64,000 bases of DNA from Leucoraja ocellata (taxonomy: Eukaryota), in NCBI GenBank assembly GCA_036785375.1, contig JAWMAR010002394.1, forward strand, positions 1 through 64,000, given 5' to 3'. Position numbers and translations under genes: made by a program. Below are positions 1 through 47,315 of the stretch, one piece after another. Below the pieces are notes generated by a model. It did no database searches. It was not told the origin of the DNA and worked only from the letters and a program-made list of their open reading frames with translations. Each line of letters starts with the position of its first letter. Position 1 is the stretch's first letter.

Positions 1-112
1 TCCATCGAAATCACTGACCTCAAAATGAACGATACAGGAAGGTATTACTGCCGAGTGAGTGTTTTCACAGGGGAAACATATAATGGTCACGGCACAGATG
101 TCACGGTCACAC
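1..112 (+). CDS. 3' part of Ig V(J)-type domain exon of receptor gene A (5' part lies outside the window)
   Basis: Frame 1 reads SIEITDLKMNDTGRYYCRVSVFTGETYNGHGTDVTVT: D-x-G-x-Y-Y-C F-strand and J-like GxGT motif. Phase-1 donor C|GTAAGT at 112/113. Near-identical to 30110-30221. Confidence 0.9.
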
Positions 113-569
113 GTAAGTTTACAGAACCTTAACTTTATCTTTACTGTTCTTAACATTCTTAATCCGACTGCACTTGCCTTTGTGTGTCGGAGGGAACTGC
201 AGACACAAAAACTGGAGAAACTCAGCGGGACAGGCAGCATCTCTGGAGAGAAGGAATGTGTGACGTTTTGGGTCGAGACCCTTCTTCAGACTGGTTAGGG
301 ATAAGGGAAACGAGAGATATAGGCGATGATATAGAGAGATATAACGAATGACAGAATGACATATATGCAAAGGGTGTCAGGAGTCAGGACTCAAATTAGT
401 TTTATTGTCATGATTGTCTGAGAAAAGTAACCATGATAAAGGAAACATGCCATTATTCGCTGTTTGTTGTGTGATAACGAGAAGCTGGTGCTACTTGGGT
501 GGGGGTGGGGGGGGGGGGGTGGTGGTGGTGGGGGGGGGGGGGGGGGGGGATAGAGAGAGAGAGAGAGAG

Positions 570-1770
570 GCTGCCGAAATTACTTGAAGTGAGAGAAATC
601 AATATTCATACCACTGGGGTGTAAACTGCCCAAACCAAATATGAGATGCTGCTCCTCCAATTTGCATTTAGCCTCAATCTGACAATGGAGGAGACCGAGG
701 ACAGAAAGGTCTGTGTGGGAATGGGGAGGATAATTAAAGTGTTCAGTAACTGGGAGATCAGGTTGGTGCAGGCGGTCTGAGCCAAGGTGTTTAGCGAAAC
801 GATCGCCCAGTCTGCGTTTGGTCTCGCCGATGTGTTAGAGTTCACATCTGGAACAACGGATACAGTAGATGAGGTTGGAGGAGCAGCAAGTGAACCTCTG
901 CCTCACCTGAAAGGACTGTTGGGGTCCCTGGACAGAGTTGAGGGAGGATGTATTAGAAACATAGAAACATAGATAATAGTTGCAGGAGTAGGCCATTCGG
1001 CCCTTCGAGCCTGCACCGCCATTCAATATGATCATGGCTGATCATCCAACTCAGTATCCTGCACCTGCCTTCTCTCCATACCCCCTGATCCCTTTAGGCA
1101 CAAGGCCCACATCTAACTCCGTCTTAAATATAGCCAACGAACTGGCCTCAACTACCTTCTGTGCCAGAGAATTCCACAGATTCACCACTCTCTGTGTGAA
1201 AAATGTTTTCTTCATCTCGGTCCTAAAAGATTTCCCCCTTATCCTTAAACTGTGACTCCCTTGTTATGGACTTCCCCAACATCGGGAACAATCTTCTTGC
1301 ATCTAGCCTGTCCAACGCCTTAAGAATTTTGAAAGTTTCTTTAAGATCCCCCCTCAATCTTCTAAATTCTAGCGAGTACAAACCGATTCTATCCAGTCTT
1401 TCTTCATACGAAAGTCCTGACATCCCAGAAATCAATCTGGTGAACCTTCTCTGTACTCCCTCCATGGCAAAAATGTATTTCCTCACATTAGAAGACCAAA
1501 GCTGTACGCAATACTCCAGGTGTGATCTCACCAAGACCTTGTACAACTGCAGTAGAACCTCCCTGCTGCTATACTCAAATCCTTTTGCTATGAATGCTAA
1601 CTTACCATTCGCCTTCTCCGGTGAGGACCGGTGTTGCATCTTCTGCGGTTGCTGGGGAAGGTACCTGGAGAAGGGGTGGTCTGGGTGGGAAGGGATGAGT
1701 TGACCAGTTAGTTGAGGAGGGAACGGTCTCTGAGGAGGGAAGCAAAAAGGGGTGGAGATGGGTAAATGTG
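570..1770 (-). mobile_element. Penelope-like element fragment, interrupted by a CR1 3' fragment (~955-1618)
   Basis: Minus-strand QSFQVRQRFTCCSSNLIYCIRCSRC matches the GIY-YIG region at 55669-56382. The CR1 insert (RT C-terminus ORF 1223-1639) is absent from the paralogous copy at 30280-30810. Confidence 0.8.
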
Positions 1771-2501
1771 AGGAACTCCAGATGCTGGTTTAGACCGAAG
1801 ATAGCTGGAGTAACTCAGCGGGACAGGCAGCATCTCTGGAGAGAAGGAATGGGTGACGTTTCGGGTGGAGACCCATTCATCATCTTGACCATCTTCTGCT
1901 TTGATCTGTCTTTTTCACACCTCACGTGCTCTTTGTACCCTTCCATATCTCTAGTCTCCCTGTCCCCAGACTCTCAGTCTGCGGAGAGGAAGTTGAAACG
2001 CCCAACTCCAGTACCAAGTCTGTTGAGCTTCACCCATGCTCCTCTGGGTAGGTCAGACCCTGGACAGGTTTTGTCTGGTGAACAGATGGAGCTGTGTAAT
2101 GGAGATGAGGTTGCCTTCCACTCCTGTGACCACTTGGTGGCTATCCAGTGTGCTTTTGTCTCCGTTGGCTGGATTGATGCTAGGAGTTGTTTAAGGATGT
2201 TAATTGCCTGTCAGGACGCGCGTCCTTGGGTTGAGAGAGGAAGCAATAACGCCCAGGGGAAACGCAGGCAATATAATGGAGAACGTGCAAACTCCACACA
2301 GACAGACAGCACCCGGGGTCAGGATCGAACCCGCGTTGTCTCACGACATTTAAAAGGCGTCTCGCCAAGCATTTGAAACGCTGAGACATAGAAAGGCCAT
2401 GATCCTAACGCGAGTAAATGGGATTGTGTAGATAGGTGTAATGGATGGCATTGACAGGGTCGGCCGAAAGGCCAGCGCCGAGACTATAATATTATTTCAA
2501 G

Positions 2502-2611
2502 TTGATGAATCGACCATACAATCACCGAATCTGATCATAGTTACTGAAGGCGGGACTGTGCGGATAAACTGTACATTTGTTGGCACCACAATCAGTTCAA
2601 TTGGGCACTAA
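2502..2611 (+). pseudogene. Truncated V-exon fragment broken by a CR1 3' fragment
   Basis: DESTIQSPNLIIVTEGGTVRINCTFVGTTISSI, then LINE sequence and TAA at 2609-2611. Upstream 2260-2500 is homologous to the intron before the V exon at 29898. Confidence 0.85.
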
Positions 2612-3601
2612 GATGAGGAAAACCTTTTTCACCCAGAGAGTTGTGAATCTGTGGAATTCTCAGCGTCATAAGGCAGTGGAGGCCGGTTCTCTGGATGCTT
2701 TCAAGAGAGAGTTAGATAGAGATTTAAAGAGAGCGGAGTCAATGGATATGGGGAGAAGGCAGGAACGGGGCACTGATTGTGAATGATCAGCCATGATCAC
2801 AGTGAATGGCGGTGCTGGCTCGAAGGGCCGAATGGCCTCCTCCTGCACCTATTGTCTATTGTCTATTGCCGACACCGGCCAACAATGTCCCAGCTACACT
2901 AGTCCCACCTGCCTGCGCCTGGTCAATATCCCACAAAACCTGTCCTATCCATGTACCTGTCCAACTGCTTCTTAAACCATGGGATAGTCCCAGCCCCAAC
3001 GACCTCTGGCAGCTTGCTCCATACACCGACTATTCTTTCCATCGAAGCGCAATCCAGTTCCTCCTTAATTCACATGCACGCTCCGCTCACTCCGACTCCT
3101 CCATATATCAGGGGTAAATTACACCTGTTCATTACCTATCAGGACGCACGTCTTTGGGATGAGAGAGGAAGCAGTAACGCCCAGGGGAAACACAGGGAAT
3201 AACACGGAGAACGTGCAAACTCCACACCGGCAGTCAGCATTGAGGCCGGGATACTGGCCCTCAGAGGCAGCAGCTGCTTCGGCTATTCCCTCAAGCAATC
3301 AAGGTGGAGATAAAAGGAACAGCAGATGCGGGGTTACAAACAAAAAGACGGAAAGTGCTGGAGTAACTCAGCGGTCAAGGCAGCATCTGTGGAGAACATG
3401 GATAGGTGACATTGTGGAATGCTGAAGAAGGGTGCCGACCTGAAATGTCGCCTATACACGGGGTTTGGAGATTGCAACCTTCACGTGGCCCGCCCTGTTT
3501 CGACGAATGCAATCAACCTGGTGTGCACAATCAAACAAGATCAAATAGAACAAGTTGTCCAACAACTTTGGGCAATGCACGCCATACGCAAGAAGAGGAA
3601 T

Positions 3602-3852
3602 CCTATACATGTTCTCCACAGATGCTGCCTGACCCGCTGAGTTACTCCAGCACTCTGTGAAACGTCACCTATCCATGTTCTCCACAGATGCTGCCTGACC
3701 CGCTGAGTTACTCCAGCACTCTGTGAAACGTCACCTATCCATGTTCTCCACAGATGCTGCCTGACCCGCTGAGTTACTCCAGCACTCTGTGAAACGTCAC
3801 CTATCCATGTTCTCCACAGATGCTGCCTAACCCGCTGAGTTACTCCAGCACT
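3602..3852. repeat. 66-bp tandem array (Penelope-terminal-repeat derived), ~4 units
   Basis: Unit aacgtcacctatccatgttctccacagatgctgcctgacccgctgagttactccagcactctgtga; 22-aa periodicity in ORF 3541-3876. Similar arrays at 9620-9920, 44440-44610 (inverted) and 46675-46990. Confidence 0.9.
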
Positions 3853-4021
3853 TTGAATTCTATGCAAGATTCCCACATCTGTTGTTACTGTTCAGGCAAC
3901 TGAAGTGTGGGAATTTGTCTACGTTTACAATGACAGTGGGAACATCTCGGTGTATAAGAATGGAAGGAAACAGAAAGAAAATGGGAAAGTAATTGGTGAA
4001 CTTGATGTTTTATTCCTTCAG

Positions 4022-4179
4022 GCCGGATCTCTGTAGAAATCCCTGCATGGGGATTACGTTGGCAGCTGGTGGTAATGGGAGTGAAACTTGCAACGTTCAT
4101 TGTGATCAACGTTATAATAGTTTTCATCATCCGCTCATGGGAGTCTTGTGGATTTGCCAGCCGGACAAAAGAAGCCTAA
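4022..4179 (+). CDS. Transmembrane + short cytoplasmic exon with TM lysine (activating-type receptor, gene A)
   Basis: Acceptor ttttattccttcAG|GC at 4021/4022 is phase 1, compatible with the V exon ending at 112. Reads RISVEIPAWGLRWQLVVMGVKLATFIVINVIIVFIIRSWESCGFASRTKEA* (Lys codon 4084-4086). Donor G|GTAAGA at 4194/4195 just after the stop. Frame intact in three copies. Confidence 0.8.
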
Positions 4180-4307
4180 CAGGCTGGTCAAACGGTAAGA
4201 GGATTGCCAGCGCCATGTGTGGGTTGTATTAGCAGCTGAGGTCACTGGACAATGGTGAATTTTATTGTCACCTGCGTGGTGCTACCACAGTGAAAATATT
4301 GTCCTTA

Positions 4308-4585
4308 CAAACTAAACTAAACTAAACTAAACTCAACTCAACTAAAATAAAATAAAATACTCTAAACGAAACTAAACGAAACTAAACTTAACCAAATCAA
4401 ACTAAACAAAATTCAACTAACCTAAACTAAAATAAACCTAACAAAATTTAAACAAACGAATCCAAAGCAAAGCAAACTAAACTAAACTAAACTAAACTAA
4501 ACCATACCAAACTAAACTAAACTAAACTGAACTAAACTAAACTAAACTAAACTAAACTTAAATTAACTTAAATTAACAACTAAAC
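4308..4585. repeat. Degenerate (AACTA)n microsatellite
   Basis: Seen directly. Paralogues at 10375-10520 and 47447-47780; another at 43392-43490. Confidence 0.95.
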
Positions 4586-4614
4586 TACTCTGAAATACAT
4601 TCAGTTCCATTGAA

Positions 4615-4760
4615 ATCCCGCACTCCCTTGGCCACGCTCTCATTTCACTCCTACCATCAAGTGGAAGATATCTGAGTCTGAAAACCGTGACCACAAGGTT
4701 CAAGAACAGCTTCTTCCCTGCAACTATCAGGCTCTTGAACATCACAGAAGACTAGGCTCA
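4615..4760 (+). mobile_element. Rex1/Babar-like LINE 3' fragment
   Basis: Reads LLPSSGRYLSLKTVTTRFKNSFFP, typical of the Rex1/Babar RT C-terminus. Copies at ~10680-10810 and ~47800-47940. Confidence 0.55.
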
Positions 4761-5336
4761 ACTATGAACATGAATGGACTTCCTTGTGTTGCACCAAGGA
4801 TCTTGTATTTTCGTGTTTGCACCAGATACACATTTATTGTTGGTTTTGTTTATTATATTTTATCTAAGTGTGTTGTATGTACAGGCCGGTTACGCTGCTG
4901 CCAGTAAGAATTCCATTGTCCGGTTGTCGGTACAACAAACTTAGATAAAATATAATCAACAAAACCAACAACAAATTTGTAACTAGTGCAAACCCTCTTG
5001 AATCTTGCAACGTAGACTTACTGCAACATAACAAAGGCGACATGGCAGGGAAAACTAGACCGAACCTGGCCAGAAATAAGGAGCTCATCCAGGACTTGGA
5101 TGGTACATGGATAGGTGGGTTTAGTGTAGCTGAGACATGTTGGCCGGTGCGGGGAGTGTGGGCCATAAGATCCTGTTTCCACGCTGTATCACTCCATGAC
5201 TCTATGACTAGGAGCTTTGTGGACACATACTTGACAAGAACTTTAATAACAATAATGTAGTCAATTGTGTTCAATGCTATTAATGTTTTTGCGCCTGTAC
5301 ATGTGATATAATAAAATATCTATTTTATTTTCACAG

Positions 5337-5520
5337 ACCATAAGTGTTGAACTCCCTACATATTTGAATCAACTCATCCAACAGATCAAACCATGAAAAG
5401 CAAACTCATTACTGAATCAACATTAGCTCAGTCAGCTGTGCTGATACTGTTGTGGACCATTTGGGATAATGTAATTTGTGAAATCTTACACTCATTAAAA
5501 CTCCACATTGCCTTCTTGTT
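5337..5520 (+). other. Putative terminal 3'UTR exon of gene A
   Basis: Acceptor tattttattttcacAG (5335-5336), ATTAAA at 5494-5499, T/GT-rich tract downstream. Conserved at 16038 and 48530. Confidence 0.5.
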
Positions 5521-5579
5521 TGTTCGTTCCTGACAACAACAGATTCAAGTCAGAGTAGTTACATTTCAAACGCAGACCA

Positions 5580-5925
5580 TTAGACAATAGACAATAGACA
5601 ATATTTGGTCTACAGTGTACAAGCCCAGCCGCTCCATTCTCTCAGCATATAACAGTCCCACCATCCCGGGAATTGACCTTGTAAAACTACGCTGCACTCC
5701 CTCAATAGCAAGAATGTCCTTCCTCAAATAAGGGGACCAAAACTGCGGATAATACTCCAGGTGTGGTCTCACTAGGGCCCTGTAAAACTGCAGAAGGTCC
5801 TCTTTGCTCCTATACTCACCTCCTCTTGTTATAAGGGCCAACATGCCATTCGCTTTCTTCACTGCCTGCTGCACCTGCATGCCCACTTTCATTGACTGAT
5901 GAACAAGGACCCCCCCCAGATCCTG
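5580..5925 (-). mobile_element. CR1-clade LINE 3' fragment
   Basis: ORF 5566-5982 [15 protein letters not shown]; (TAGACAA)n tail. Confidence 0.85.
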
Positions 5926-7074
5926 CTGCACCTCCCCAAGCGGCGATACCCTGTGAAGAAGCGTTTTCACCGGAAACATCACCCATTCCTTTTCTCCAGA
6001 GATGCTGCCTGACCCGCGGAGTTACTCCAGCTTTTTGTATCTATTTTCGGACAGTCCTCTTGTGTTCCATTTGCCTGATGGATCTCCCGGTTTCAAACCA
6101 TTTTAACTCTCCTTCCCATTCCCACACCGACCCCTCTGCCCTGAGTCTCCTCCATTGCCTGAGTGAGGCCATTGGAGAAACTGGACCTCATTCTCCATCT
6201 CGGTAGCTTAGAACCCAATATTGAACTGTGAATTTTCTAATGTCAGATCACGCCAGTTCAGGCGACAGTTCGAGCTCGACAAACGAATCATCGACACCAA
6301 GGTGTCTCGGCCACAAGATGGTGCCACAATGGTGTGATTTGACAGAGATTGTTACAGGTTGTAATAATAGACCAATAAGGACACTTTGTTAATAGGATCT
6401 TGTTCATGTTCTTTATATAATGACAACAATTTATCGCTGAATGATGTGCGCTGGAAAGTTATTAAAAGTCCTGCTGTATCCGAAACTGTAATAAGTCTCA
6501 TCTGTTACACGGATGTCCATTCTACCGGTAAATACACGTATGTGTCTCATAAGGTCATAAGGTCATAAGGTCATAAGTGATAGGAGCAGAATTAGGCCAT
6601 TTGGTCCATTAAGTCTACTCCACCATTCAATCATGGCTGATCTATATTTCCCTCCTAACCCCATTCTCCTGCCTTCTCCCCATTCCTCTAACACCTGTAC
6701 TAATCAATAATCTATCTATCTTTGCCTTACAAATATCCACTGACTTGGCCTCAACAACCTTCTGTGGCCAATAATTCCACAGATTCACCACCCTCTGACT
6801 AAATAAATTCCTCCCCATCTAGAACCTCATTTAATTCTGAGGCTATGACCTCGAGTCCTAGACCCTCTCGTTAGTGAAATAATCCTCTCCACATCCACTC
6901 TATCCAAGCCTTTCACTTTTCAGTAAATTTCAATAAGATATCCTCTCATCCTTCTAAATTCATGCTGGTACAGGCCCAGTGCCGTCAAACGCTCATCATA
7001 TGTTAACCCACTCAATCCTGGGATCATTCTTGTAAATCTCCTCTGGGCCCCTACAGCACTTTCAGCGGCAGAAT

Positions 7075-7308
7075 CGCAGGTTCGATCCCGACTACGGGTA
7101 CTGTCTGTACGGAGTTTGTTCGTCCTGTTGTCTCCGAGATCATCAGTTAAATCCACACTCCAAAGACATACAGGTTTGTAGGTTAACTGGCTCAGTATAT
7201 ATGTAAATTGTCCTTAGTGTGTGCAGTGTAGTGTTAAAGTGCGGGGATCGCTGGTCGGTACGGACACGATGGGCCGAATGGCCTGTTTCCGCGTTGTATC
7301 TCCAAAAC
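7075..7308 (+). mobile_element. tRNA-derived V-SINE copy
   Basis: B-box-like GGTTCGATCCC, V-domain-like core (ctgtctgtacggagtttg...cacactccaaagac), 3' end gggccgaatggcctgtttccgcgttgtatctc. Confidence 0.7.
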
Positions 7309-7309
7309 A

Positions 7310-9340
7310 CAGAAACATAGAAAATACCATTCGACCCTTCGAGCCAGCACCGCCATTCATTGTGATCATGGCTGATTATTCCCAATCAGTAACCCGTGCC
7401 TGCCTTCTCCCCATATCCCTTGACTCCACTAGCCCCTAGAGCTCTATCTAACTCTCTCTTAAATCCATCCAGTGAATTGGCCTCCACTGCCCTCTGTGGC
7501 ATGGAATTCCACAAATTCACAACTCTCTGGGTGAAATCGTTTTTTCTCACCTCAGTCTTAAATGCCTCCCCTTTATTCTAAGCCCCTGGTTCTGTACTCG
7601 TCGAACATTGGGAATTTTTTTCCAGCATCTAGCTTGTCCAGTCCTTTTATAATTTTATATGTTTCTATAAGATATCCCCTCATCCTTCTAAACTCCAGTG
7701 AATATAAGCCTAGTCTTTTCAATCTTTCCTCATATGACAGTCCCGCCATCCCAGGGATCAATCTCGTGAATCTATGCTGCACTGCCTCAATCACAAGGAT
7801 GTCTTCCCTCAAATTCGGAGACCAAAACTGTACACAATACTCCAGATTTGGGCTTTCTAGAGCCCTGTACAACTGCAGAAGAACCTCTCTACTCCTATAC
7901 TGAAATCCTCTTGTAATGAAGGCTAACATTCCATTAGCTTTCTTCACTGCCTGCTGTACCTGTAAGCCAACTTTCAGTGACAGGTGTACAAGGACACCCA
8001 GGTCTCGCTGTAGCTCCCCCTTATCTAACCTAACCCCATTGAGATAATAATCTGCCCCCTTGTTTTTCCGCCAAAGTGTATAACCCCACATTTATCTATA
8101 TTATACTGCATCTGCCACGCATCTGCCCACTCACTCAACCTGCCCAGGTCACCCTGCAACCTCCTAACATTCTCTTCACAGTTCACGCTGCCACCCACCT
8201 TGTGTCATCCGCAAACTTGCTAGTGTTGCTCCTAATTCCCTCTTCCAAATCATTAATATATATGGTAAACAGTTGTGGCCCCAACACCGCGCCTTGTGGC
8301 ACTCCACTGGCCACTGCCTGCCAATCTGAAAAAGACACGTTCAATCCTCCTCTTTGTTTCCTGTCTGCCAACCAATTTTCTATCCATGTCAACACCCCAC
8401 CCCCAATACCATGCGCTCTAATTTTAGTCACCAGTCTTCCGTGCGGGACCTTATCAAAGGCTTTCTGAAAGTCTAGATACACTACATCCACTGGCTCCCC
8501 TTCATCCATTTTAGATCTCACATCCTCAAAAGATTAGTCAAGCATGATTTCCCTTTCATAAATCCATGTTGACTTGGACTAATCCTTTTACTGCTATTCA
8601 AATGCCCCATTATTACATCTTTAATAATTGACTCCAGCATATTTCCCACCACTGAAGTCAGTCTAACTGGTCTATAATTCCCCGTTTTCTCTCTCGCTCC
8701 TTTCTTGAAAAGTGAGATAACATTAGCTATCCTCCAATCCACAGGAACTGATCCTGAATCTATGTAACATTGGAAAATTATCACCAATGCGTCCACTATT
8801 TCTAGAGCCACCTCCCTGAGAACCATCAGGCCCAGGGGATTTATCATCCTTCAGTCCCATTAGCCTACCCAATACTATGTCTCGCCTAATGAAAATTTAC
8901 TTCGGTTCCTCTACCCTTGTAGATCCTCAGTCCTCCAGTACATCTGGGAGATCGATTGTGTCTTCCTTAGTGAAGACAGATCCGAAGTACCCATTCAACT
9001 CTTCTGCCATTTCCTTGTTCCCCATAATAATTTCACCCGTGTCTGCCTTCAAGGGACCCACATTTGACTTTGCTATTATTTTTCCCTTAACGTATGCAAA
9101 TAAGCGTTTACTGTCCGTCTTTATATTCCTGGCCAGCTTCCCCTCTTACTTCATCTGTTCAGCCCGTATTGCCCGTTTTGTCTCCTTCTGTGATCCCATG
9201 AAAGTTTCCCTATCCTCTGGCTTCCGGCCACTCTTTGCTGCATTATATATTTTTCCTTTTAATTTTATTCTATCCGTAACTTCTCTTGTCAGCCACGTTT
9301 GCCTCCTACTCCCCTTAGAATCTGTCTTCCTTTTTGGACT
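7310..9340 (-). mobile_element. Decayed CR1 LINE ORF2 (RT), 5'-truncated
   Basis: Frameshifted ORFs 7573-8091, 8183-8521 ([21 protein letters not shown]) and 8518-8847 (NYRPV). Confidence 0.9.
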
Positions 9341-10088
9341 AACTGAACTAAACTGATCTAAACTGAACGAAACTGCACGAAACTAAACATTATTGAATCT
9401 CGGAATAGGTGACGTTTCGAGTGAGAACACTTATTCAGACTTTGTGTCTATTTTTGTAAACCAGCATTTGCAGTTCCTTGTTTCTACAATATATACAGTT
9501 GGTTCTGCTATAACTTGACATCTGTTTCTTAAAGCAACCTCGCCATTATGACAATTGGAAACGAGGGTTTGATCTCGAGTGTTTCTGAAATTAACGCTTA
9601 ACCCCCAGACAATTCTCCATAATTGCTGCCTGACCCGCTGACTTACTCCAGCATTCTGTGAAACGTCACCTATCCATGTTCTCCACATATGCTGCCTGAC
9701 CCGCTGAGTTACTCCAGCACTCTGTGAAACGTCACCTATCCATGTTCTCCACAGATGCTGCCTGACCCGCTGAGTTACCCCAGCACTCTGTGAAACGTCA
9801 CCTATCCATGTTCACCACAGATGCTGCCTGACCCGCTGACTTACTCCTGCACTCTGTGAAACGTAACCTATCCATGTTATCCACAGATGCTGCCTGACCC
9901 GCTGAGTTACTCCAGCACATTAAATTCCGTGCAAGATTCAAACATCTCTTGTTACTGTTCAGGCAACTGAAGTGTGCGAATTGGTCTACGTTTACAATGA
10001 CAGTGGGAACATCTCGGTGTATAAGAATGGAAGGAGACAGAAAGAAACTGGGAAAGTAATTGGTGAACTTGATGTTTTATTCCTACAG

Positions 10089-10246
10089 GCCGGATCCCTG
10101 TAGAAAGCCCTGCATGGGGATTACGTTGGCAGCTGCTGGTAATGGGAGTGAAACTTGCAACGTTCATTGTGATCAACGTTATAATAGTTTTCATCATTCG
10201 CTCATGGGAGTCTTGTGGATTTGCCAGCCGGACAAAAGAAGCCTAA
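10089..10246 (+). CDS. Second copy of TM-Lys exon (no V exon of its own seen upstream)
   Basis: Acceptor tattcctacAG at 10087-10088; RIPVESPAWGLRWQLLVMGVKLATFIVINVIIVFIIRSWESCGFASRTKEA*; donor GTAAGA at 10262. Confidence 0.65.
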
Positions 10247-16220: not shown

Positions 16221-16582
16221 TTGTTCGTTCCTGACAACAACAGATTCAAGTCAGAGTGGTTGCATTTCAAACGCAGACCAATACACAATAGACAATAGAC
16301 AATATTTGGTCTACAGTGTACAAGCCCAGCCGCTCCATTCTCTCAGCATATGACAGTCCCGCATTCCCGAGAATTAACTTTGTAAACCTATGTTGCACTC
16401 CCTCAATAGCACGAATGTCCCTCCTCAAATTAGGGGACCAAAACTGCACACAAAACTACTCCACGTGTGGTCTCACTAAGGCCCCATACATCTGCAGAAG
16501 GACCTCTTTGCTCCTATACTCAACTACTCTTGTTATGAAGGCCAATTCGCTTTCTTCACTGCCTGCTGTGCCTGCATGCTTA

Positions 16583-19500
16583 GAAACATAGAAACATAGA
16601 AATTAGGTGCAGGAGTAGGCCATTCGGCCCTTCGAGCCTGCACCGCCATTTAATATGATCATGGCTGATCATCCAACTCAGTATCCCGTACCTGCCTTTT
16701 CTCCATACCCTCTGATCCCCTTGGCCACAAGGGCCACATCTAACTCCCTCTTAAATATAGCCAATGAACTGGCCTCAACTACCCTCTGTGGCAGAGAGTT
16801 CCAGAGATTCACCACTCTCTGTGTGAAAAAAGTTCTCCTCATCTCGGTTTTAAAGGATTTCCCCCTTATCCTTAAGCTGTGACCCCTTGTCCTGGACTTC
16901 CCCAACATCGGAAACAATCTTCCTGCATCTAGCCTGTCCAACCCCTTAAGAATTTTGTAAGTTTCTATAAGATCCCCTCTCAATCTCCTAAACTCTAGAG
17001 AGTATAAACCAAGTCTATCCAGTCTTTCTTTATAAGACAGTCCTGACATCCCAGGAATCAGTCTGGTGAAACTTCTCTGCACTCCCTCTATGGCAATAAT
17101 GTCCTTCCTCAGATTTGGAGACCAAAACTGCACGCAATACTCCAGGTGTGGTCTCACCAAGACCCTATAGAACTGCAGTAGAACCTCCCTGCTCCTATAC
17201 TCAAATCCTCTTGCTATGAAAGCCAACATGCCATTCGCTTTCTTTACTGCCTGCTGCACCTGCATGCCTACCTTCAATGACTGGTGTACCATGACACCCA
17301 GGTCTCGCTGCATCTCCCCCTTTCCCAATCGGCCACCGTTTAGATAATAATCTGCTTTCCCGTTTTTGCCACCAAAATGGATAACCTCACATTTATCCAC
17401 ATTAAACTGCATCTGCCAAACATTTGCCCACTCACCCAGCCTATCCAAGTCACCTTGCAGTCTCCTAGCATCCTCCTCACACCTAACACTGCCCCCCAGC
17501 TTAGTGTCATCCGCAAACTTGGAGATATTGCCTTCAATTCCCTCATCCAGATCATTAATATATATTGTAAATAGCTGGGGTCCCAGTACTGAGCCTTGCG
17601 GTACCCCACTAGTCACTGCCTGCCATTGTGAAAAGGACCCGTTTACTCCTACTCTTTGCTTCCTGTTTGCCAGCCAGTTCTCTATCCACATCAATACTGA
17701 ACCCCCAATGCCATGTGCTTTAAGTTTGTATACTAATCTCTTATGTGGGACCTTGTCGAAAGCCTTCTGGAAGTCCAGATACACCACATCCACTGGTTCT
17801 CCCCTATCCACGCTACTAGTTACATCCTCGAAAAATTCTATAAGATTCGTCAGACATGATTTACCTTTCGTAAATCCATGCTGACTTTGTCCAATGATTT
17901 CACCACTTTCTAAATGTGCTGCTATCCCATCTTTAATAACTGACTCTAGCAGTTTCCCCACTACCGATGTTAGGCTAACTGGTCTGTAATTCCCCGTTTT
18001 CTCTCTCCCTCCCTTCTTAAAAAATGGGGTTACGTTTGCTACCCGCCAATCCTCTGGAACTACTCCAGAATCTAAGGAGTTTTGAAATATTATTACTAAT
18101 GCATCCACTATTTCTGGAGCTACTTCCTTAAGTACTCTGGGATGCAGCCTATCTGGCCCTGGGGATTTATCGGCCTTTAATCCATTCAATTTACCCAACA
18201 CCACTTCCCGACTAACCTGGATTTCACTCAATTCCTCCACCTCATTTGACCCCGCGGGCCCCTGCTATTTCCGGCAGATCATTTATGTCTTCCTTAGTGA
18301 AGACGGAACCAAAGTAGTTATTCAATTGGTCCGCCATATCCTGGTTCCCCATGATCAACTCACCTGTTTCTGACTGCAAGGGACCTACATTTGTTTTAAC
18401 TAATCTCTTTCTTTTCACATATCTATAAAAACTTTTGCAGTCAGATTTTATGTTCACTGCCAGTTTTCTTTCATAATCCATTTTTCCTTTTCTAATTAAG
18501 CCCTTCGTCCTCCTCTGCTGGTCTCTGAATTTCTCCCAGTCCTCCGGTATGCTGCTTTTTCTGGCTAGTTTGTACGCATCATCCTTTGCTTTGATACTAT
18601 CCCTGATTTCCCTTGTTATCCATGGATGCACTACCTTCCCTGATTTATTCTTTTGCCAAACTGGGATGAACAATTTTTGTAGTTCATCCATGCAGTCTTT
18701 AAATGCCTTCCATTGCATATCCACCGTCAACCCTTTTAGAATTAATTGCCAGTCAATCTTGGCCAATTCACGTCTTATACCCTCAAAGTTACCTTTCTTT
18801 AAGTTCAAAACCATTGTTTCTGAATTAACAATGTCACTCTCCATCCTAATGAAGAACTCAACCATATTATGGTCACTCTTGCCCAAGGGGCCACACACAA
18901 CAAGACTACTAACTAACCCTTCCTCATTACTCAATACCCAGTCTAAAATAGCCAGCTCTCTCGTTGGTTCCTCTACATGTTGATTTAGATAACTATCCCG
19001 TATACATTCCAAGAAATCCTCTTCCTCAGCACCCCTGCCAGTTTGATTCACCCAATCTATATGTAGATTGAAGTCACCCATTATAACTGCTTTGCCTTTG
19101 TCGCAAGCATTTCTAATTTCCTGTTTGATGCCATCCCCAACTTCACTACTACTGTTAGGTGGCCTGTACACAACACCCACCAGCGTTTTCTGCCCCTTAT
19201 TGTTTCGCAGCTCTACCCATACCGATTCCACATCCTCCAAACTAATGTCCTTCCTTTCCATTGCGTTAATCTCCTCTCTAACCAGCAACACTACCCCACC
19301 TCCTTTTCCTTTCTCTCTATCCCTCCTGAATATTGAATATCCCGGGATGTTCAGCTCCCAGCCTTGGTCACCCTGGAGCCATGTCTCCGTGATCCCAACT
19401 ATATCATAATCATTAATGGCTATCTGCACGTTCAACTCATCCACCTTATTACGAATACTCCTTGCATTGAGACACAAAGCCTTCAGGCTTGTTTTTACAA

Positions 19501-19671
19501 CGCTCTTACCCCTTATACAATTATGTTGAAAAGTGGCCCTTTTTGATTTTTGCCCTGGTTTTGTCTGCCTGCCACTTTTACTTTTCACCTTGCTACCTAT
19601 TGCTTCTACCTTCATTTTACACCCCCCTGCCCCTCTGCTCTTGTACCCATCCCCCTGCCACATTAGTTTAA
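16583..19671 (-). mobile_element. Young CR1 LINE, complete ORF2 with one frameshift (~18250), lacks ORF1
   Basis: ORFs 18242-19663 (APE) and 16678-18240 (RT); (TTTCTATG)n tail on the element strand; TSD ATGCTTA at 16576-16582 and 19709-19715. Nearly identical to 59405-62480. Confidence 0.95.
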
Positions 19672-22056
19672 ATCCTCCCTTATTTTATGATATATTATCA
19701 TATATTATATGCTTATTTTCATTGACTGATGAACAAGGACCCCCCAGATCTGGTTATACTTCCCCTTTTCCAAAATTGACACCATTCAGATAATAACCTG
19801 CCTTCCTGTTCTCGCCACCAATGTGGATAACCTCACATTTATCCATATTAAACTGACCTGCCATGCATCTGCCCACTCCCCCAACCTGCCCAAGTCACCC
19901 TGCATCATCATAGCATCCTCCTCACAGTTCACAGAGCCAATCAGCTTTGTGTCATCTGTAAATGTGTTAATGCTACTTTGAATCCCTTCATCTAAAGCAT
20001 TGATGTATATTGTAAATAGCTACAGTCAACATTTTCCCCAGAGATGCTGCCTGACCCGCTGAGTTACTCCAGCTTTTCGTATCAGCTTTTTCGGACATGG
20101 ACTGATGGATCTCCCGGTTGCAAACCATTTTAACTCTCCTTCCCATTCCCACACCGACCCCCTCTGCCCTGGGTCCCCATTGCCTGAGCGAGGCCATTGG
20201 GGAAACGGAACTTGATAGTCCATCTGGACAGCTTAGAACCCAATATTTTCCAATGTCAGGTAAATCATCTGTAACCCCCTCCCTCCCTTCCCCCACTCTT
20301 CCATGTGCCAAAGCTGGATATGCACCCATTTCCCTTGCCCGCCCCTTCCGCCTTTCTTCCTTCCTCTGGTTCCGCAATCATATTATCCATTCACACCTCT
20401 AATTCCCTCATGGAATGCCTAATTGTATCAACTTCCCTTACCCTTTCACGCTGCGAGTTTCAGATCCATGTGACACACTATTGCACCTGTATACGATTTG
20501 TATAGATTGTATCATGTGTGGTGGAGAGGTTCACGTGTCGCATGAACACTCATATAATATTTAAACATACACAGTGTAATAGACCATAGACAATAGGTGC
20601 AGGAGGAGGCCATTCGGCCCTTCGAGCCAGCACCGCCATTTAATGTGATCATGACTGATCATCCCCAATCAGTATCCCGTTCCTGCCTTCTCACCATATC
20701 CTCTGACTCCGCTATCTTTAAGAGCCCTATCTAGCTCTCTCCTGAAAGTATCCAGAGAACCGGACTACACCGCCCTCTGAGGCAGAGAGTTCCACAGACT
20801 CACAACTCTCTATGTGAAGAAGTGTTTCCTCATCACCGTTCTAAATGTCTTATTCTTAATATTAATATTAGTAACAAAGCGATGGCTGCCAAGTGAAGTC
20901 TAGCTCTGTTGTCCAGATCAGCGTTGATTGTTCGGCCCAGAACTTCCCACATCGACCCCTCTGCCCTGAGTCTCCTCCATTGCCTGAGTGAGGCCATTGG
21001 AGAAACTGGACCTCATTCTCCATCTCGGTAGCTTAGAACCCGATATTGAACTGTGAATTTTCTAATGTCAGATCACGCCAGTTCAGGCGACAGTTCGAGC
21101 TCGACAAACGAATCTTCGACACCAAGGTGTCTCGGCCACAAGATGGCGCCACAATGGTGTGATTTGACAGAGATTGTTACAGGTTGTAATAATAGTCCAA
21201 TAATTACACTTTGTTAATAGGATCTTGTTCATGTTCTTTATATAATGACAACAATTTATCGCTGAATGATGTGCGCTGGAAAGTTATTAAAAGTTCTGCT
21301 GTATCCGAAACTGTAATGAGTCTCTTCTGTTACACGGATGTCCATTCTACCGGTAAATACACGTATGTGTCTCATAAGGTCATAAGGACATGTGATAGGC
21401 GCAGAATTAGGCCATTTCGTCCATCAAGTCTACTCCACCATTCAATCATGGCTTATCTATATCTCCCTCCTAACCCCATTCCCCTGCCTTCTCCCCATTC
21501 CTCTAACACCTGTACTAATCAATAATCTATCTATTTTTGCCTTACAAATATCCACTGATTTGACATCCACAACCTTCTGTGGCAAATAATTCCACAGATT
21601 CACCACCCTCTGACTAAATAAATTCATCCCCATCTCCTTCCGTAAAGAACCTCCTTTAATTCAAAGGCTATGACCTCGAGTCCTAGACTCTCTAATTAGT
21701 GGAATAATCCTCTCCACATCCACTCTATCCAAGCCTTTCACTATTCAGTAAATTTCAATGAGATATCCTCTCATCCTTCTAAATTCCTGCTGTTACAGGC
21801 CCAGTGCCGTCAAACGCTCATCATATGTTAACCCACTCAATACTGGGATCATTCTTGTAAATCTCCTCTGGGCCCTCTCCAGAGCCAGCACATCCTTCCT
21901 CAGATATTGGTCTTGTAGAATCCTACAGCTCCTCTCCTTGGCGTTCACTGCAACCCGATCTCAGATAAAACATTTCCAATCTCCGCAATGTGTTAACAAA
22001 TAATCTGAAATAGTGTTTGAAATTAACCCAAGGAATATACACAAGTAAAGAAACGC

Positions 22057-28435: not shown

Positions 28436-29089
28436 ACAGGGTGGAAGTAGAACCATGAGAGCAGCGGATGGCTCATTATCGCCCCCATCTTACTTATAGA
28501 CCTGCCAATGAGTGGATTATTTGCACGCAAAGAGTTACAAGGATTTGTCATATTTGAGGCAGCTAATGCCCTGTTTCTTCCGGAATAGCGGCCCAGCTTG
28601 TTCCTCCTGAATGGATTTCACAATGTAGCACCCACAATGTTATAACTCCGCCCCGTCCATAGTGCCGGTGGAACCAAACGGGTCAGACGGCATCTCCGGA
28701 GGTCAAAACAATGAACCGCAGGTGCTGGTTAATGCACAAGGGGACATAACGTGATGGAGTAACTTAACAGGTCAGGCAGCGCCTCTGGAGATGGGAACGA
28801 GGAACTGCAATGCTGGTTGATGCACAAGAAAGAGGACTTAATGTGCTGGAGTAACTCCACCGGTCAGGCAGCGTCTCTGGAGGTGGGAACAAGGAACTGC
28901 AGAGCCTGGTGGATGCACAACAGAACAAAAAGTACTGGAATAGATCAGCGCGTCAAGAAGCATCTCTGGAGAACATGGACAGGCGACGTTTCGGGTCTGG
29001 ATCTCTCTTCAGACGGATTTCACATTTCTTCCGCAGATGCTGCCTGACCTGTTTTTGTGTTTGTTTCCGCCTCAGGTAGTCGTTCAAAG

Positions 29090-29127
29090 ATGCAGTGGAG
29101 TGTGGTCGCTTGGTCCGTTCTGCTATT
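29090..29127 (+). CDS. Signal-peptide exon of receptor gene B (runs into N-gap)
   Basis: Acceptor ttgtttccgcctcAG at 29074-29075; aagATG at 29090; MQWSVVAWSVLL hydrophobic leader ~800 bp upstream of the V exon. Donor presumably in gap 29128-29317. Confidence 0.7.
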
Positions 29128-29897
29128 NNNNNNNNNNNNNNNNNNNNNNNNNNNNNNNNNNNNNNNNNNNNNNNNNNNNNNNNNNNNNNNNNNNNNNNNN
29201 NNNNNNNNNNNNNNNNNNNNNNNNNNNNNNNNNNNNNNNNNNNNNNNNNNNNNNNNNNNNNNNNNNNNNNNNNNNNNNNNNNNNNNNNNNNNNNNNNNNN
29301 NNNNNNNNNNNNNNNNNCATTATCGCCCCCCTGGTTTATTCTGTCAATCATTTAGACCCCGGGGTTCAAAGTGGGATGTTTTGATGTTGCGAACTGTAGT
29401 GGTGTTATATAAATAGCAAGAAAGATTCTTCAAGAAGACAGCATGACACAGATCAATTAGAAAATGGGCGACGTGTTAGTGAACGGAACTCAACTTTGGC
29501 AAAGGCGAGCCCCACGTTAATTAGTCCACACCACGACGTTATCCCACTTTCCCATCAACTCACAACACATCAGGAGACATTTACAGAGGATTATTAACCG
29601 ACCAACCTGCACGTCTTTGGGATGTGGGTGGGAACCGGCGCACCCGGAGAAAACCCGCGCGGTCCCTGTGAGAACGTGCAAACTCCACACGAACAGATAG
29701 CACGCGGGGTCAGGATCGAACCCGGTTGTCTCACGATATTTAAAAGGCGTCTCGCCAAGCACTTGAAACGCTGAAACATAGAAAGGCTATGATCCTAACG
29801 CGAGTAAATGGGATTGTGTAGATAGGTGTAATGGATGGCATTGACGGGGTGGGCCGAAAGGCCCGCGCCCGAACTATAAGATTATTTCTGGTTTCAG

Positions 29898-30221
29898 GTG
29901 CTGTTGGATCCGATGAATCGATCATACAATCACCGAAGCAAATCACAGTTACTGAAGGCGGGACTGTGCGGCTAAACTGTGCAGTTGTTGGCAACACAAT
30001 TGGGGCCATTAGTTGGTACAAAGACGTGGAAACTCGTGCCGTTTCCAACACGAGCGGCGACTATTATGGCCGCGTTCTGAAATATAATTCACCGGGGATT
30101 CTAAAAGAATCCATCGACATCACTGACCTCAACATGAACGAGACAGGAAGGTATTACTGCCGATGGAGTGCTTTCTCAGGTGAAATATATAATGGTCACG
30201 GCACAGATGTCACGGTCACAC
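29898..30221 (+). CDS. Ig V(J)-type domain exon of receptor gene B (NKp30/SIRP-like)
   Basis: Acceptor ttctggtttcAG|GT, phase 1. Reads GAVGSDESIIQSPKQITVTEGGTVRLNCAVVGNTIGAISWYKDVETRAVSNTSGDYYGRVLKYNSPGILKESIDITDLNMNETGRYYCRWSAFSGEIYNGHGTDVTVT, with canonical Cys, Trp, YYC and GxGT. Donor C|GTAAGT. Confidence 0.93.
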
Positions 30222-30279
30222 GTAAGTTTGCAGAACCTTAACTTTATCTTTACGGGGGATAGAGAGAGAGAGAGAGAGG

Positions 30280-30810
30280 ATGCCGGAATTACTTGAAGTG
30301 AGATAAATCAATATTCATACCACTGGGGTGTAAACTGCCCAAACCAAATATGAGATGCTGCTCCTCCAATTTGCATGTAGCCTCACTCTGACAATGCAGG
30401 AGACCGAGGACAGAAAGGTCTGTGTGGGAATGGGAAGGAGAATTAAAGTGTTCAGTAACCGGGAGTTCAGGTTGGTGCAGGCGGTCTGAGCCAAGGTGTT
30501 TAGCGAAACGACCGCCCTGTCTGCGTTTGGTCTCGCCGATGTGTTAGAGTTCACATCTGGAACAACGGATACAGTAGATGAGGTTGGAGGAGCAGCAAGT
30601 GAACCTCTGCCTCACCTGAAAGGACTGTCGGGGTGCCTGGACAGAGTCGATAGATGAATTCAAGGGACCAGTGTTGCATCTCCTGCGGTTGCTGGGGGAA
30701 GGTACCTGGAGAAGGGGTGGTCTGGGTGGGAAGGGATGAGTTGACCAGTTAGTTGAGGAGGGAACGGTCTCTGCGGAGGGAAGCAAAAAGGGGTGGAGAT
30801 GGGAAAATGT
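30280..30810 (-). mobile_element. Penelope-like element fragment
   Basis: ORF 30544-30786 RRRCNT...LIYCIRCSRC; paralogue of 570-1770. Confidence 0.8.
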
Positions 30811-31199
30811 GAGGAACTCCAGATGCTGGTTTAGACCGAAGATAGCTGGAGTAACTCAGCGGGACAGGCAGCATCTCTGGAGAGAAGGAATGGGTGACGT
30901 TTCGGGTGGAGACCCATTCATCATCTTCAGCATCTTCTGCTTTGATCTGTCTTTTTCACACGTCACGTGCTCTTTGTACCCTTCCATATCTCTAGTCTTC
31001 CTCTCACAAGACTCTCAGTCTGGAGAGAAGTCCCATCTTCAGACACAACCAAACTCACCGCACCCGTAGCAAAGAGCACGTGTCCCCAGGTGGGGAGGGC
31101 AGACCCTGGACACGTGCTCTTTGTACGGGTGACGTTTCGGGTTGTGTCTGAAGAGGGGACCCTTCTTTAGGCTGAGAGTCAGGAGAGAGGGATATGGAA

Positions 31200-31765
31200 G
31201 GCCCTAGTGAGACCACACCTGGAGTAATGTGTGCAGTTTTGGTCCCCTCATTTGAAGAAGGACATTCTTGCTATTGAGGGAGTGCAGCGTAAGTTTACAA
31301 GGTTAATTCCCGGGATGGCGGGACTGTCATATGTTGAGAAAATGGAGCGGCTGTGCTCGTATAGTCTGGAATTTCGAACGATGAGAGGGTATCGTATTGA
31401 AACATGTAAGATCATTAAGGGTTTCGACACGCTAGAGGCAGGAAACATGTTCCCGATGTTGGGGGGGGGGGGGGGGGGGGGGGTCCAAAACCAGGGGCCA
31501 CACAGTTTAAGAATAAGGGGTAAGCCATTTAGAACTGAGATGAGGAAACACGTTTTCACATAGAGAGTTGTGAGTCTGTGGAATTTTCTGCCTCAGAGGG
31601 CGGTGGATGCAGGTTCTCTGGATACTTTCAAGAGAGAGCTAGATAAGGCTCTTAAATATAGCGGAGTTAGGGGATATGGGGAGAAGGCAGGAACGGGGAT
31701 GTCGGTGCTGGCTCGTAGGACCGAATGGCCTACTCCTACACCTATTGTTTATTGTCTATTGTCTA
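31200..31765 (+). mobile_element. CR1 LINE 3' fragment
   Basis: ORF 31231-31563 RT C-terminus. Confidence 0.85.
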
Positions 31766-32310
31766 TGGGACAACGAGCATGTGAAGTGTGAAAACGACAG
31801 ATCAATGCAGAGGATACCAGGACGATGATGTTGGCTGAGGGGAAGGTGACAAGGGGGCATGCAATCCATACAGTTTATCAAGGGGGGGGGGGGCAGTGAA
31901 ACGTGGGGGAACTAGGATGGGAGCGACAGAGAGAGCGGGGATGCAAGAGTTATTTGGAATTAGAGCAGTCAATATTCATACCGCTGGGGTGTAACACTCC
32001 AGAGACGTACAGGTGTGTAGGTTAATCGGCTTGGTGTAAATGTAAATTGTCCCTAGTGTGTGTAGGATGGTGTCAGTGTGAGGGGATCGCTGGTCGGCAC
32101 GGACCCGGTGGGCCGAAGGGCCTGTTTCCGCGCTGTATCTCTAAACTAAAGCTGAACAAACAAAAAACACCCCGATGCCTTCTCTCCATAACACCCGACA
32201 CCTGTACTGATCATGAATCAATCAATCTCCGACTTAAAACATGTATAGATTGGCTTGGCCTGTACATCACATGTTGCTGTGCCTTTTACTGTATTTTTGT
32301 TTCTCAACAG

Positions 32311-32436
32311 CGCCTGTTCCGAGCGGCAAGGGTGGAACTTATAACATTCCGCTTGTGTGTGGACTCTCGGGTGTGGCGTTGCTCGGGATGGTACTGATTC
32401 TCATCATTTACCTGCGACGCCGCGGTCGATCTCCAG
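32311..32436 (+). CDS. Stalk + uncharged transmembrane exon of gene B
   Basis: Acceptor ttttgtttctcaacAG; 126 bp, phase 1-1. Reads PPVPSGKGGTYNIPLVCGLSGVALLGMVLILIIYLRRRGRSP with a basic stop-transfer segment. Donor CAG|GTAACA. Confidence 0.88.
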
Positions 32437-32629
32437 GTAACAACATCAAGTCAAGTCAAGTTTATTTGTCACATACAAGATGCGCAGTGAAATGAAAGTG
32501 GTGGATTGTGGAAAACAACAGCACAACAGAACAGAATAGAACAGAACCAGTTGTTACATTTTAGGGGATCCATTAAAAAAAAGACACAACACAACTGTAA
32601 ATTAGTTAATTAGACCCTCGTGAGGTCAG

Positions 32630-32925
32630 CGTTTACAGTCCTGAAGGCCTGTGGGATGAAACTCCGTCTCTGGATCTGCACCTGCTGGTGTATAGTTCCT
32701 GCAGGGGGGAGAGTATAGTTCCCATGGTGCGTTCGGCCGAACGCACTACTCTCTGCAGAGCCTTCCTGTCCTGGGCAGAGCTGTTCACAACCCAGATTGT
32801 GATGTTACCGGACAAGATGCTTTCTACAGCCCCAGAATAGAAGCACTGAAGGATCCTCAGAGAGACTCTGAAATTCAGCTGCCTGTGGTGTTAAAGGCGC
32901 TGCCTTGCCTTGCTCACCAGTGCTG
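32630..32925 (-). mobile_element. Rex1/Babar-like LINE fragment
   Basis: SGNITIW..NSSAQDRKALQRVVRSAE. Related fragment at 34385-34700 (LSGCITAWFGNSSIQDRK). Confidence 0.65.
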
Positions 32926-34947: not shown

Positions 34948-34979
34948 ATAAAGGAACCGGAACAGAAGATGAGGCTACG
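34948..34979 (+). CDS. 32-bp cytoplasmic micro-exon of gene B
   Basis: Acceptor tgtattacAG, donor ACG|GTATGT. Phase 1 to 0 exactly bridges the TM exon and last exon; DKGTGTEDEAT. Confidence 0.7.
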
Positions 34980-35059
34980 GTATGTAGTTAATTAACCTTT
35001 AGATGTTCCCTCTGACTTGATCAGTGGTTATTTGCCATTTTGTGTTTCTTTGTGAATTA

Positions 35060-35750
35060 AATAGACAAAAGGTACAGGATGAGGCCATTCGGAATTTCGA
35101 GCCAGTACCGCCATTCAATGTGATCGTGGCTGATCATCCCAATCAGTACCCCGTTCCTGCCTTCTCCCCATATCCCCTGACTCCGCTGTCTTTAAGAGCC
35201 CTATCCAGCTCTCTCTTGAAAGTATCCAGAGAACCGGCCTCTGAGGCAGAGAATGCCACAGATTCACAACTCTCTGTGAGAATACGTGTTTCCTCGTCTC
35301 CGTTCTAAATGGCCGACCCCTTATTCTTAAACTGTGGTCCCTGGTTCTGGACTCCCCCAACATCGGGAACATGCTTTCCTGCCTCTAGCGTGTCCAAACC
35401 ATTAACAATCTTATATGTTTCAATAAGATCCCCTCTCATCCTTCTAAACTCCAGAGTATACAAGCCCAGCCGCTCCATTCTCTCAGGATAAGACAGTCCC
35501 GCCATCCCGGGAATGAACCTTGTAAAAGTCTGTGGAATATTCTGGCTCAGATGCCGGTGGAGGCCGGTTCTCTGGAAACTTTCAAGAGAGAGCTAGATAG
35601 TGCTCTTGAAGATAGCGGAGTCTGGGGATATGGGGAGAAGGCAGGAACGGGGTACTGATTGTGGATGATCAGCCGTGATCACATTGAATGGCGGTGCTGG
35701 CTCGAGGGACCGAATGGCCTACTCCTGCACCTATTGTCTATTGTCTATGC
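35060..35750. mobile_element. Two CR1 3' fragments in opposite orientation
   Basis: Minus-strand RT C-terminus 35060-35525 abutting a plus-strand 3' end 35528-35750. Confidence 0.75.
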
Positions 35751-37673: not shown

Positions 37674-37959
37674 GAAAATGACACATCGAAAAATATAATC
37701 TATGCTGACCTGAATATCAAAAAGTTGAACAGTAATCACCGTTCGGGTCAAGATGCCAGAGGGAATGGGGCTCGGGTCAAAAACCCCGGCGGGGCCGGAC
37801 CTCTGTCCGAGGCAGGTGGAAGGGAAGACCCGGTTCAGAAATCCCGCTCAGACGGACAATCCAGCATCGAACAAGCAGAAGAAGGATCGCATAAGAAATG
37901 AACAACAGGTTGTGTACGCAACCGTGAATGCTCAGCGTCCACCAGTTCCCCAACACTGA
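37674..37959 (+). CDS. Terminal cytoplasmic exon of gene B with ITIM(s); apparent +1 frameshift between motifs
   Basis: Acceptor gttacattccAG|GAA, phase 0. ENDTSKNIIYADLNIKK (ITIM 37695-37712), stop ending at 37901. The +1 frame, open 37729-37959, ends RNEQQVVYATVNAQRPPVPQH* (ITIM 37909-37926). Confidence 0.82.
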
Positions 37960-38743: not shown

Positions 38744-38749
38744 AATAAA
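38744..38749 (+). promoter_or_regulatory. Candidate polyadenylation signal of gene B
   Basis: AATAAA in non-repeat AT-rich sequence ~800 bp after the stop. Confidence 0.4.
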
Positions 38750-45342: not shown

Positions 45343-45440
45343 TTGATGAATCGATCATACAATCACCGAATCAGATCATAGTTACTGAAGGCGGGACTGT
45401 GCCGCTAAACTGTGCATTTGTTAGCAACACAGTCAGTTAA
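45343..45440 (+). pseudogene. Truncated V-exon fragment, copy 2
   Basis: DESIIQSPNQIIVTEGGTVPLNCAFVSNTVS*, then the same CR1 junction as at ~2603. Confidence 0.85.
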
Positions 45441-47157: not shown

Positions 47158-47315
47158 GTCGGATCCCTGTAGAAAGCCCTGCATGGGGATTACGTTGGCA
47201 GCTGGTGGTAATGGGAGTGAAACTTGCAACGTTCATTGTGATCAACGTTATAATAGTTTTCATCATCCGCTCATGGGAGTCTTGTGGATTTGCCAGCCCG
47301 ACAAAAGAAGCCTAA
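47158..47315 (+). CDS. Third copy of TM-Lys exon
   Basis: Acceptor tattccttcAG 47156-47157; RIPVESPAWGLRWQLVVMGVKLATFIVINVIIVFIIRSWESCGFASPTKEA*; donor GTAAGA at 47331. Confidence 0.7.

Follow-up and report, generated by a model that had tools for sequence, protein, structure and literature searches.

NCR3/NKp30-like genes of the skate Leucoraja ocellata: a probable activating and inhibitory pair with moderate evidence for diversification of the V-domain loops

Anatomy of the paired genes and their cluster

The window analysed here, the first 64,000 nucleotides of Leucoraja ocellata contig C2394, carries two linked genes, A and B, that have similar ectodomains and opposite signalling parts, a charged transmembrane (TM) segment in gene A and an ITIM in gene B (Table 1). 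Because the window starts at base 1 of the contig, exon A amounts to the last 37 codons (112 bases) of its V exon, and the 5' part and the leader lie off the contig. No lesion was found in these bases, in the donor or in the TM exon, which is in phase with exon A. In gene B every splice site that can be seen follows the GT-AG rule, and joining the exons preserves the reading frame. It is the only inhibitory gene found and keeps one ITIM as assembled; a frameshift near 37830 puts a VVYATV motif (37909) out of frame. Compared with Rhinoraja longicauda P0002, about 14 bases with a second tyrosine motif are apparently missing from 37824-37926, reflecting either a real allele or an assembly error.

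The original prediction took A and B for paired receptors. This idea holds, since exon A lies upstream of a Lys-TM exon with a short tail and exon B lies within a single gene that has an uncharged TM and the ITIM IIYADL. An adjacent activating/inhibitory pair is also present in Rhinoraja longicauda (LOC144602683, Lys-TM, and LOC144602684, ITIM; XP_078271940.1 and XP_078271942.1, both annotated as 'uncharacterized'). These closest relatives, with 71-73% V identity, have adjacent gene numbers and share the leader and the Lys-TM and ITIM tails of the skate genes; being neighbours, one with a leader-V-Lys-TM structure and the other with an ITIM tail, they support both of our gene models. The Rhinoraja inhibitory tail has three tyrosine motifs, compared with one in frame in gene B. 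Adjacent genes of Hypanus sabinus (LOC132394821/2) show the same activating/inhibitory pair. Ten oligo-dT reads from a relative, all from one of the three runs searched (0 in the other two), cover a family V exon, end at the exon limits and represent two variants, and they lend weak support to spliced expression. Reads mapped to 29000-38800 were dominated by repeats and gave no usable splice joints. A search of sequencing runs listed no RNA run that contains the sequence, and the best DNA run had a share of 0.32.

Table 1. Coordinates of the receptor-related features in the window
Feature	Position	Strand	Remarks
Gene A V exon, 3' part of a VJ-type Ig V exon (activating-type unit)	1..112	+	GT donor at 113
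Gene A intron, blocks 545-941 and 1625-1987	545..1987	+	~96% identical to gene B intron 30254-31028; neutral baseline
Broken 5' V-exon fragment, then repeat	2504..2592	+	
Gene A transmembrane exon	4022..4179	+	AG acceptor, open frame, TM Lys (codon 4084-4086), short tail, TAA stop
Orphan second Lys-TM exon	10089..10246	+	No own V exon upstream
Gene B leader exon	29076..29127	+	ATG at 29090; 3' end under N; same leader in Rhinoraja longicauda P0001
Gene B complete VJ-type V exon	29898..30221	+	Phase 1-1; Pfam V-set E 2e-10; model pLDDT 91.7
Gene B uncharged transmembrane exon	32311..32436	+	Single match in genome search
Gene B small cytoplasmic exon, 32 bases	34948..34979	+	Matches DKG.. segment of Rhinoraja P0002
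Gene B last coding exon	37674..37901	+	ITIM IIYADL at 37695-37712; single match in genome search
Second 5' V fragment	45345..45431	+	Duplicate of the 2504 unit
Third Lys-TM exon	47158..47315	+	Only a V fragment upstream

The genome search returned 28 V matches (25 near-full exons, exon A and 2 fragments) and 15 leaders, both counts being lower bounds, together with 12 Lys-TM exons, 1 ITIM-type TM exon and 1 last exon. What had been described as two V exons is a family with 26 or more members. The second TM type, with Lys in the membrane span and a short tail, emerged from a scan for hydrophobic exons; the AG acceptor, the open frame and the Lys are present in 12/12. The notion that downstream V exons have no TM at all, being secreted or donor-only, was rejected after this second type was found. 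On the six contigs mapped, a unit consists of a leader, two or three tandem phase 1-1 V exons and one Lys-TM exon, and the cluster V exons are 88-92% identical to that of gene B. We aligned 26 V exons, excluding the two short fragments. Eleven are intact as far as visible and 15 are broken as assembled, 11 of them by private indels of 1-4 bases and 4 by AG-to-AT acceptors, two of these with a stop as well. Between contigs, some copies are separated by no more than 1-5 bases and may be haplotigs, so the true gene number is uncertain.

A segmental duplicate (1804-9622 / 44798-51986, 93-96%) carries a V fragment and a Lys-TM exon, and with the orphan TM exon at 10089 it shows birth-and-death debris around gene B. 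Elsewhere in the cluster, two tandem leader exons precede the first V exon (C3415:5730-7188 and C742:186926-188236). A 66-bp minisatellite derived from a dispersed repeat lies about 170 bases before each Lys-TM exon (3602-3852, 9613-9918, 46674-46988, and in other units), and its length differs among units (~280-680 bases). We rejected it as a stalk exon: the array consists of a dispersed repeat, two of its frames contain stops and it has no clear splice sites. A tandem ERV-like array stands beside the cluster, with head-to-tail copies of ~8.6 kb that are 95-97% identical (C3415 ~18-33 kb; C742 ~141-177 kb) and Pfam matches to reverse transcriptase, RNase H, MLV-type integrase and an env-like domain. 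The window also contains a perfect 82-bp tandem repeat (57673-58208, 6.5 copies, 100% identity), which lies immediately before a LINE (58457-61720) that has an endonuclease and an ORF1 region resembling a GDSL esterase, and an inverted LINE pair (16581-19679 / 59398-62482) that is 98.6% identical over 3.1 kb and belongs to a recently active family.

Relationship to NCR3/NKp30 and other receptors

To judge from their sequences, exons A and B belong to an elasmobranch NCR3/NKp30-like receptor cluster. The V alignment has invariant C27, W39, C87, G99 and G101, and each domain is a single non-rearranging VJ-type exon with Cys-Trp-Cys and G-x-G. When 1.84 billion representatives were searched without a profile, the hits came from stingrays, electric rays and sharks; several were named NCR3-like, and nurse shark NCR3 was included; among the 20 matches looked up, 6 were named NCR3 or NCR3-like, 8 were uncharacterized and 6 bore SIRP-like or other automatic names. 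The NCR3-like family is already known, and relatives already labelled NCR3-like in RefSeq include Hemitrygon akajei XP_072920818.1 and XP_072892294.1 and Heterodontus francisci XP_067865303.1. ITIM-bearing relatives also occur in rays and sharks. None of the papers listed by our literature search deals with selection or with paired signalling in NCR3-like genes of skates; ITIM/Lys-TM subtypes may already be described in Kinlein 2021, Flajnik 2012 and Ohta and Flajnik 2015, which lay beyond its reach.

Humans have one conserved NKp30 gene, which is activating and carries Arg in its TM. Human NKp30 was the best single-domain match of a 21-row family profile in the PDB (3NOI, 3PV6, 6YJP), scoring ~105 bits vs ~70 for SIRP, about 35 bits less, in a comparison that is partly circular because the profile rows include NCR3-like proteins. 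A single-sequence PDB search was uninformative. The AlphaFold model of the gene B V domain has a V-set fold, and NKp30 ranks second in Foldseek among antibody-type domains, with ~22% structural-alignment identity; Foldseek does not separate NKp30 from nanobody and TCR V domains. Two named alternatives fit less well. In SIRP the V domain is followed by C1 domains, whereas V joins the TM directly in gene B and in the Rhinoraja models. In skate MDIR/CD300-like receptors the V domain contains an additional pair of Cys and lacks a J-like strand, whereas the V domain of this family has only two Cys and a G-x-G strand.

With elasmobranch NCR3 (nurse shark QTT61904.1 and QTT61898.1) the cluster shares the single-exon VJ structure, G-x-G, the Cys-to-GxG length and the leader-V-TM layout. 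The TM of QTT61904 has 10/23 identities with the cluster Lys-TM (E 2e-5 for the pair), and a WQ..G.KL motif in the Lys-TM is common to the cluster, this protein and stingray proteins. The skate genes differ from the elasmobranch family in reflecting a recent lineage-specific burst, in which a single ITIM gene stands against 12 or more Lys-TM exons and each unit has two or three V exons. A 41-row protein tree placed our copies in a batoid clade (89/89), apart from two nurse shark rows, and left the deep branches unresolved. In PMC12227049 and PMC10751288, VJ genes such as NCR3/NKp30 are described as MHC-linked and non-rearranging. Among the 53 flanking frames scanned on our short contigs there were no MHC genes; they held retroelement families and one more VJ gene. 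The latter (C5487:24348-24641, minus strand) is a divergent NCR3-like gene that is 28% identical to the V of gene B, has an uncharged TM near 22787 and is separated by 23 kb from a family leader, which sits at the end of the contig.

Divergence, conversion and selection in the V exons

Aligning exon A with 30110-30221 reproduced the original counts exactly: 9 nucleotide differences (positions 9, 24, 33, 55, 56, 62, 67, 72 and 77), giving 7 amino acid changes (E/D, K/N, D/E, V/W, V/A, T/S and T/I) and one synonymous change (GGG/GGT). Both exons retain the N-x-T sequon (NDT/NET) and the J-like strand with G-x-G, and 4 of the changes do sit between the second Cys and G-x-G. However, over 37 codons the divergence that had been called almost purely nonsynonymous does not exceed chance expectation. 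With 8 nonsynonymous changes in 81-84 sites vs 1 synonymous change in 27-30.5 sites, pN/pS is 2.6-3.0 and Fisher p is 0.24-0.31, and we rejected the pairwise dN/dS as proof of selection. The proposed concentration in the FG loop depends on the stretch chosen: 4 of the 7 amino acid changes fall in the 11-codon Cys-to-GxG stretch (p=0.10), and p=0.045 is reached only with the 9-codon loop first quoted.

The intron shared by A and B, with 33 mismatches in ~838 aligned bases (3.9%), provided a neutral yardstick. Against it the synonymous rate is ordinary (1/27, p=1.0), and nonsynonymous divergence is raised overall (8/84, p=0.027) and within the FG stretch (5/25, p=0.0035, a post hoc test) but not outside it (3/59, p=0.43). 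Both states of 6 of the 7 amino acid differences occur among the other 24-25 copies, the Ser of B being the one private state. The pair alone is too short to show selection. The two-exon comparison is ordinary and underpowered; what matters is the pattern across the family.

Of the final 29 residues of the V domain, A and B share 24 and the Rhinoraja pair 25, compared with only 15-16 for cross-species pairs; the FG loop differs between Rhinoraja and L. ocellata but is matched within each species. The Hemitrygon ITIM gene is placed among Lys-TM genes in the protein tree, with a support of 100/98. The much closer V match within than between species and this stingray grouping point to concerted evolution, as in CEACAM. 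A PHI-type test detected recombination with windows of 3, 6 and 12 sites (p 0.0005, 0.015 and 0.016; 0.17 for 20), and the 5' and 3' halves of the V exon give different trees. SIRP-alpha/beta, PILR and Siglec-11/16 are further paired receptors under concerted evolution. PMC5112662 describes concerted evolution by gene conversion for the Xenopus and human CEACAM paired receptors, and the skate pair is alike in having ectodomains matched by conversion and nonsynonymous change on the CC'FG face. Unlike the CEACAM pairs, it belongs to a different Ig family, its homology reaches the leader and an intron, and its genes share one orientation.

Codon models were fitted with our own GY94-type code, not codeml, using branch lengths optimised under M0 and then scaled, 4-5 beta classes and naive empirical Bayes. 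Under M0 the whole-exon omega of the 26 V exons is 0.97, so dN/dS does not exceed 1 over full V exons; taken literally, this speaks against the diversifying selection originally proposed. What stood of that proposal is a contrast of moderate significance between the loops (omega ~2-3) and the framework (0.5). The site models, including the M7/M8 comparison suggested at the outset, are marginal. For the 26 exons p was 0.047 (M1a/M2a), 0.032 (M7/M8) and 0.008 (M8a/M8), but M7/M8 rose to 0.087 with F1x4 frequencies (M1a/M2a 0.043, M8a/M8 0.021). In the same order of tests, the 11 intact copies gave 0.12, 0.098 and 0.021, and the 22 copies remaining without the AT-acceptor ones gave 0.024, 0.022 and 0.003. 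Under M1a, about 74% of codons fit an omega close to 1. Masking the singletons brought the site models to p ~1e-5, a result that was set aside because masking biases such tests.

These results could be explained by birth-and-death under relaxed constraint, in which the cluster is paired, its loops tolerate change at an omega of ~1, its copies decay, and conversion and two-base changes mimic an omega above 1. The whole-exon omega, the 15/26 broken copies, the orphan TM exons and V fragments in the window, the marginal and unstable site tests and the detected recombination all agree with it. Two-base differences inflate codon-model omega, and both codon 39 (GCC/TTC) and the V/W change (GTG/TGG) are of this kind. 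Tree-free counts within the loops were also not significant (FG, 21 nonsynonymous vs 3 synonymous, p=0.082; BC, ratio 1.02).

Partition models, anchored on Cys, Trp and GxG and with loop boundaries set after the alignment was seen, gave an omega of 0.50 for the framework (p=0.003 below 1), 1.87 for BC (p=0.086), 2.77 for FG (p=0.032) and 2.15 for BC+FG (p=0.008). Without A and B the FG omega was 3.37 (p=0.021), so the FG signal holds in the other copies; with local trees it was 2.54 (p=0.054) and BC was 1.68 (p=0.17). In null simulations of 25 sequences (A excluded) with omega=1 loops on four local trees, the BC+FG statistic was reached in 3/246 and the FG statistic in 13/246, and with recombination false positives were about twice as frequent as the nominal level (8-10% at 5%). 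The selection statistics are weakened by gene conversion and by noise in the assembly.

Other observations argue against relaxed constraint. When each variant is counted once, the BC+FG nonsynonymous density is 1.92-fold the exon-wide synonymous density (p=0.003), and for variants in at least two copies it is 3.3-fold (p=8e-5). In the 116/325 pairs with alignable flanks, the median loop pN is 0.155, against 0.063 for the intron and 0.065 for pS. Omega is higher on internal branches (1.44) than on terminal ones (0.75), where recent decay would give the reverse, though this difference is not significant (2dL=3.3). We regard relaxed constraint as the less likely explanation. The evidence for loop diversification is moderate and not decisive; taking all copies together, it seems likely that modest positive selection drives diversification of the predicted ligand-binding loops.

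The variation can be placed on the NKp30 structure by an alignment anchored on IGSV-T-W and C-R-V-E-V-L-G. In the model, what was called the FG loop spans the last part of strand F, the turn and the first part of G. According to PMC3135353, NKp30 contacts B7-H6 via Ile50-Val53, Leu80, Ser82, Phe85, Leu86, Glu111, Leu113 and Gly114, and Ser52Arg cuts B7-H6 binding 150-fold. Alignment codon 39 (A/F/S), with a posterior of 0.98 the only site above 0.95, aligns with Ser52, and codons 37-40, all variable, align with Ile50-Val53. Codons 93 and 96 (posteriors 0.79 and 0.73) align with Glu111 and Gly114; the position of Leu113 is an invariant Phe in the skate copies. By analogy, the skate proteins may use the same face as in the NKp30-B7-H6 complex.

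Interpretation and significance

Our preferred reading, to which we assign a probability of roughly 0.6, is that A and B are near-identical NKp30/NCR3-like VJ domains of an activating and inhibitory pair, that their V exons are shuffled by conversion, and that the BC/C and F-G surface diversifies under modest positive selection. Gene anatomy, copy counts, the loop-versus-framework contrast and the mosaic sharing of variants are the observed parts of this reading. Charged-TM receptors pair with ITAM adaptors such as DAP12 or Fc-receptor-gamma, and the Lys-TM copies would signal through an adaptor of one of these types. Gene B would recruit SHP-type phosphatases, and its product most likely senses a self ligand. 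Duplication and conversion may generate and refresh the activating copies, which in their expanded number could follow a ligand that varies, or a pathogen molecule that mimics the ligand of the inhibitory receptor. The binding face would diversify while the V exons are shuffled by gene conversion.

A different role for the extra V exons would be that of a reservoir of alternative cassettes or conversion donors, germline and possibly somatic, in which case the A/B differences would be borrowed patches. The layout of the units, in which a single leader and a single Lys-TM exon flank two or three phase 1-1 V exons in tandem, would suit this role, as would four last-position V exons that have no acceptor (one still with an open frame), the occurrence of 6 of the 7 A/B amino acid differences in other copies and the conflicting trees of the two exon halves. 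However, NCR3-like proteins with several V domains are annotated in other sharks (P0004 with three, P0011 with two), so the tandem V exons may simply encode multi-domain ectodomains, and nothing in the present data points to somatic change. We consider a mainly reservoir role unlikely. Rather improbable as well is the reading of the locus as RAG-free, with one inhibitory gene shadowed by a dozen activating genes whose spare V exons act as cassettes or conversion donors, and with an NK-type repertoire built on NKp30's B7-H6 surface. If true, it would represent an innate route to V diversity in a family thought to resemble the antigen-receptor precursor. Finally, many private 1-base indels, near-identical copies on different contigs and contigs that break inside V exons could suggest that copies such as A are alleles or badly polished reads and their differences errors, but this is highly improbable given that 30 kb of a single contig separate A from B and different exons follow each of them, that 6 of their 7 amino acid differences recur in other copies, that several of the same variant bases appear in independent short-read runs of a relative, and that errors would not spare the framework.

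An expanded paired NKp30-like cluster with a variable binding face, as in our preferred reading, would show that this family once filled a KIR/Ly49/SIRP-type niche. The cluster also supplies concrete candidates for the little-known NK receptors of skates.
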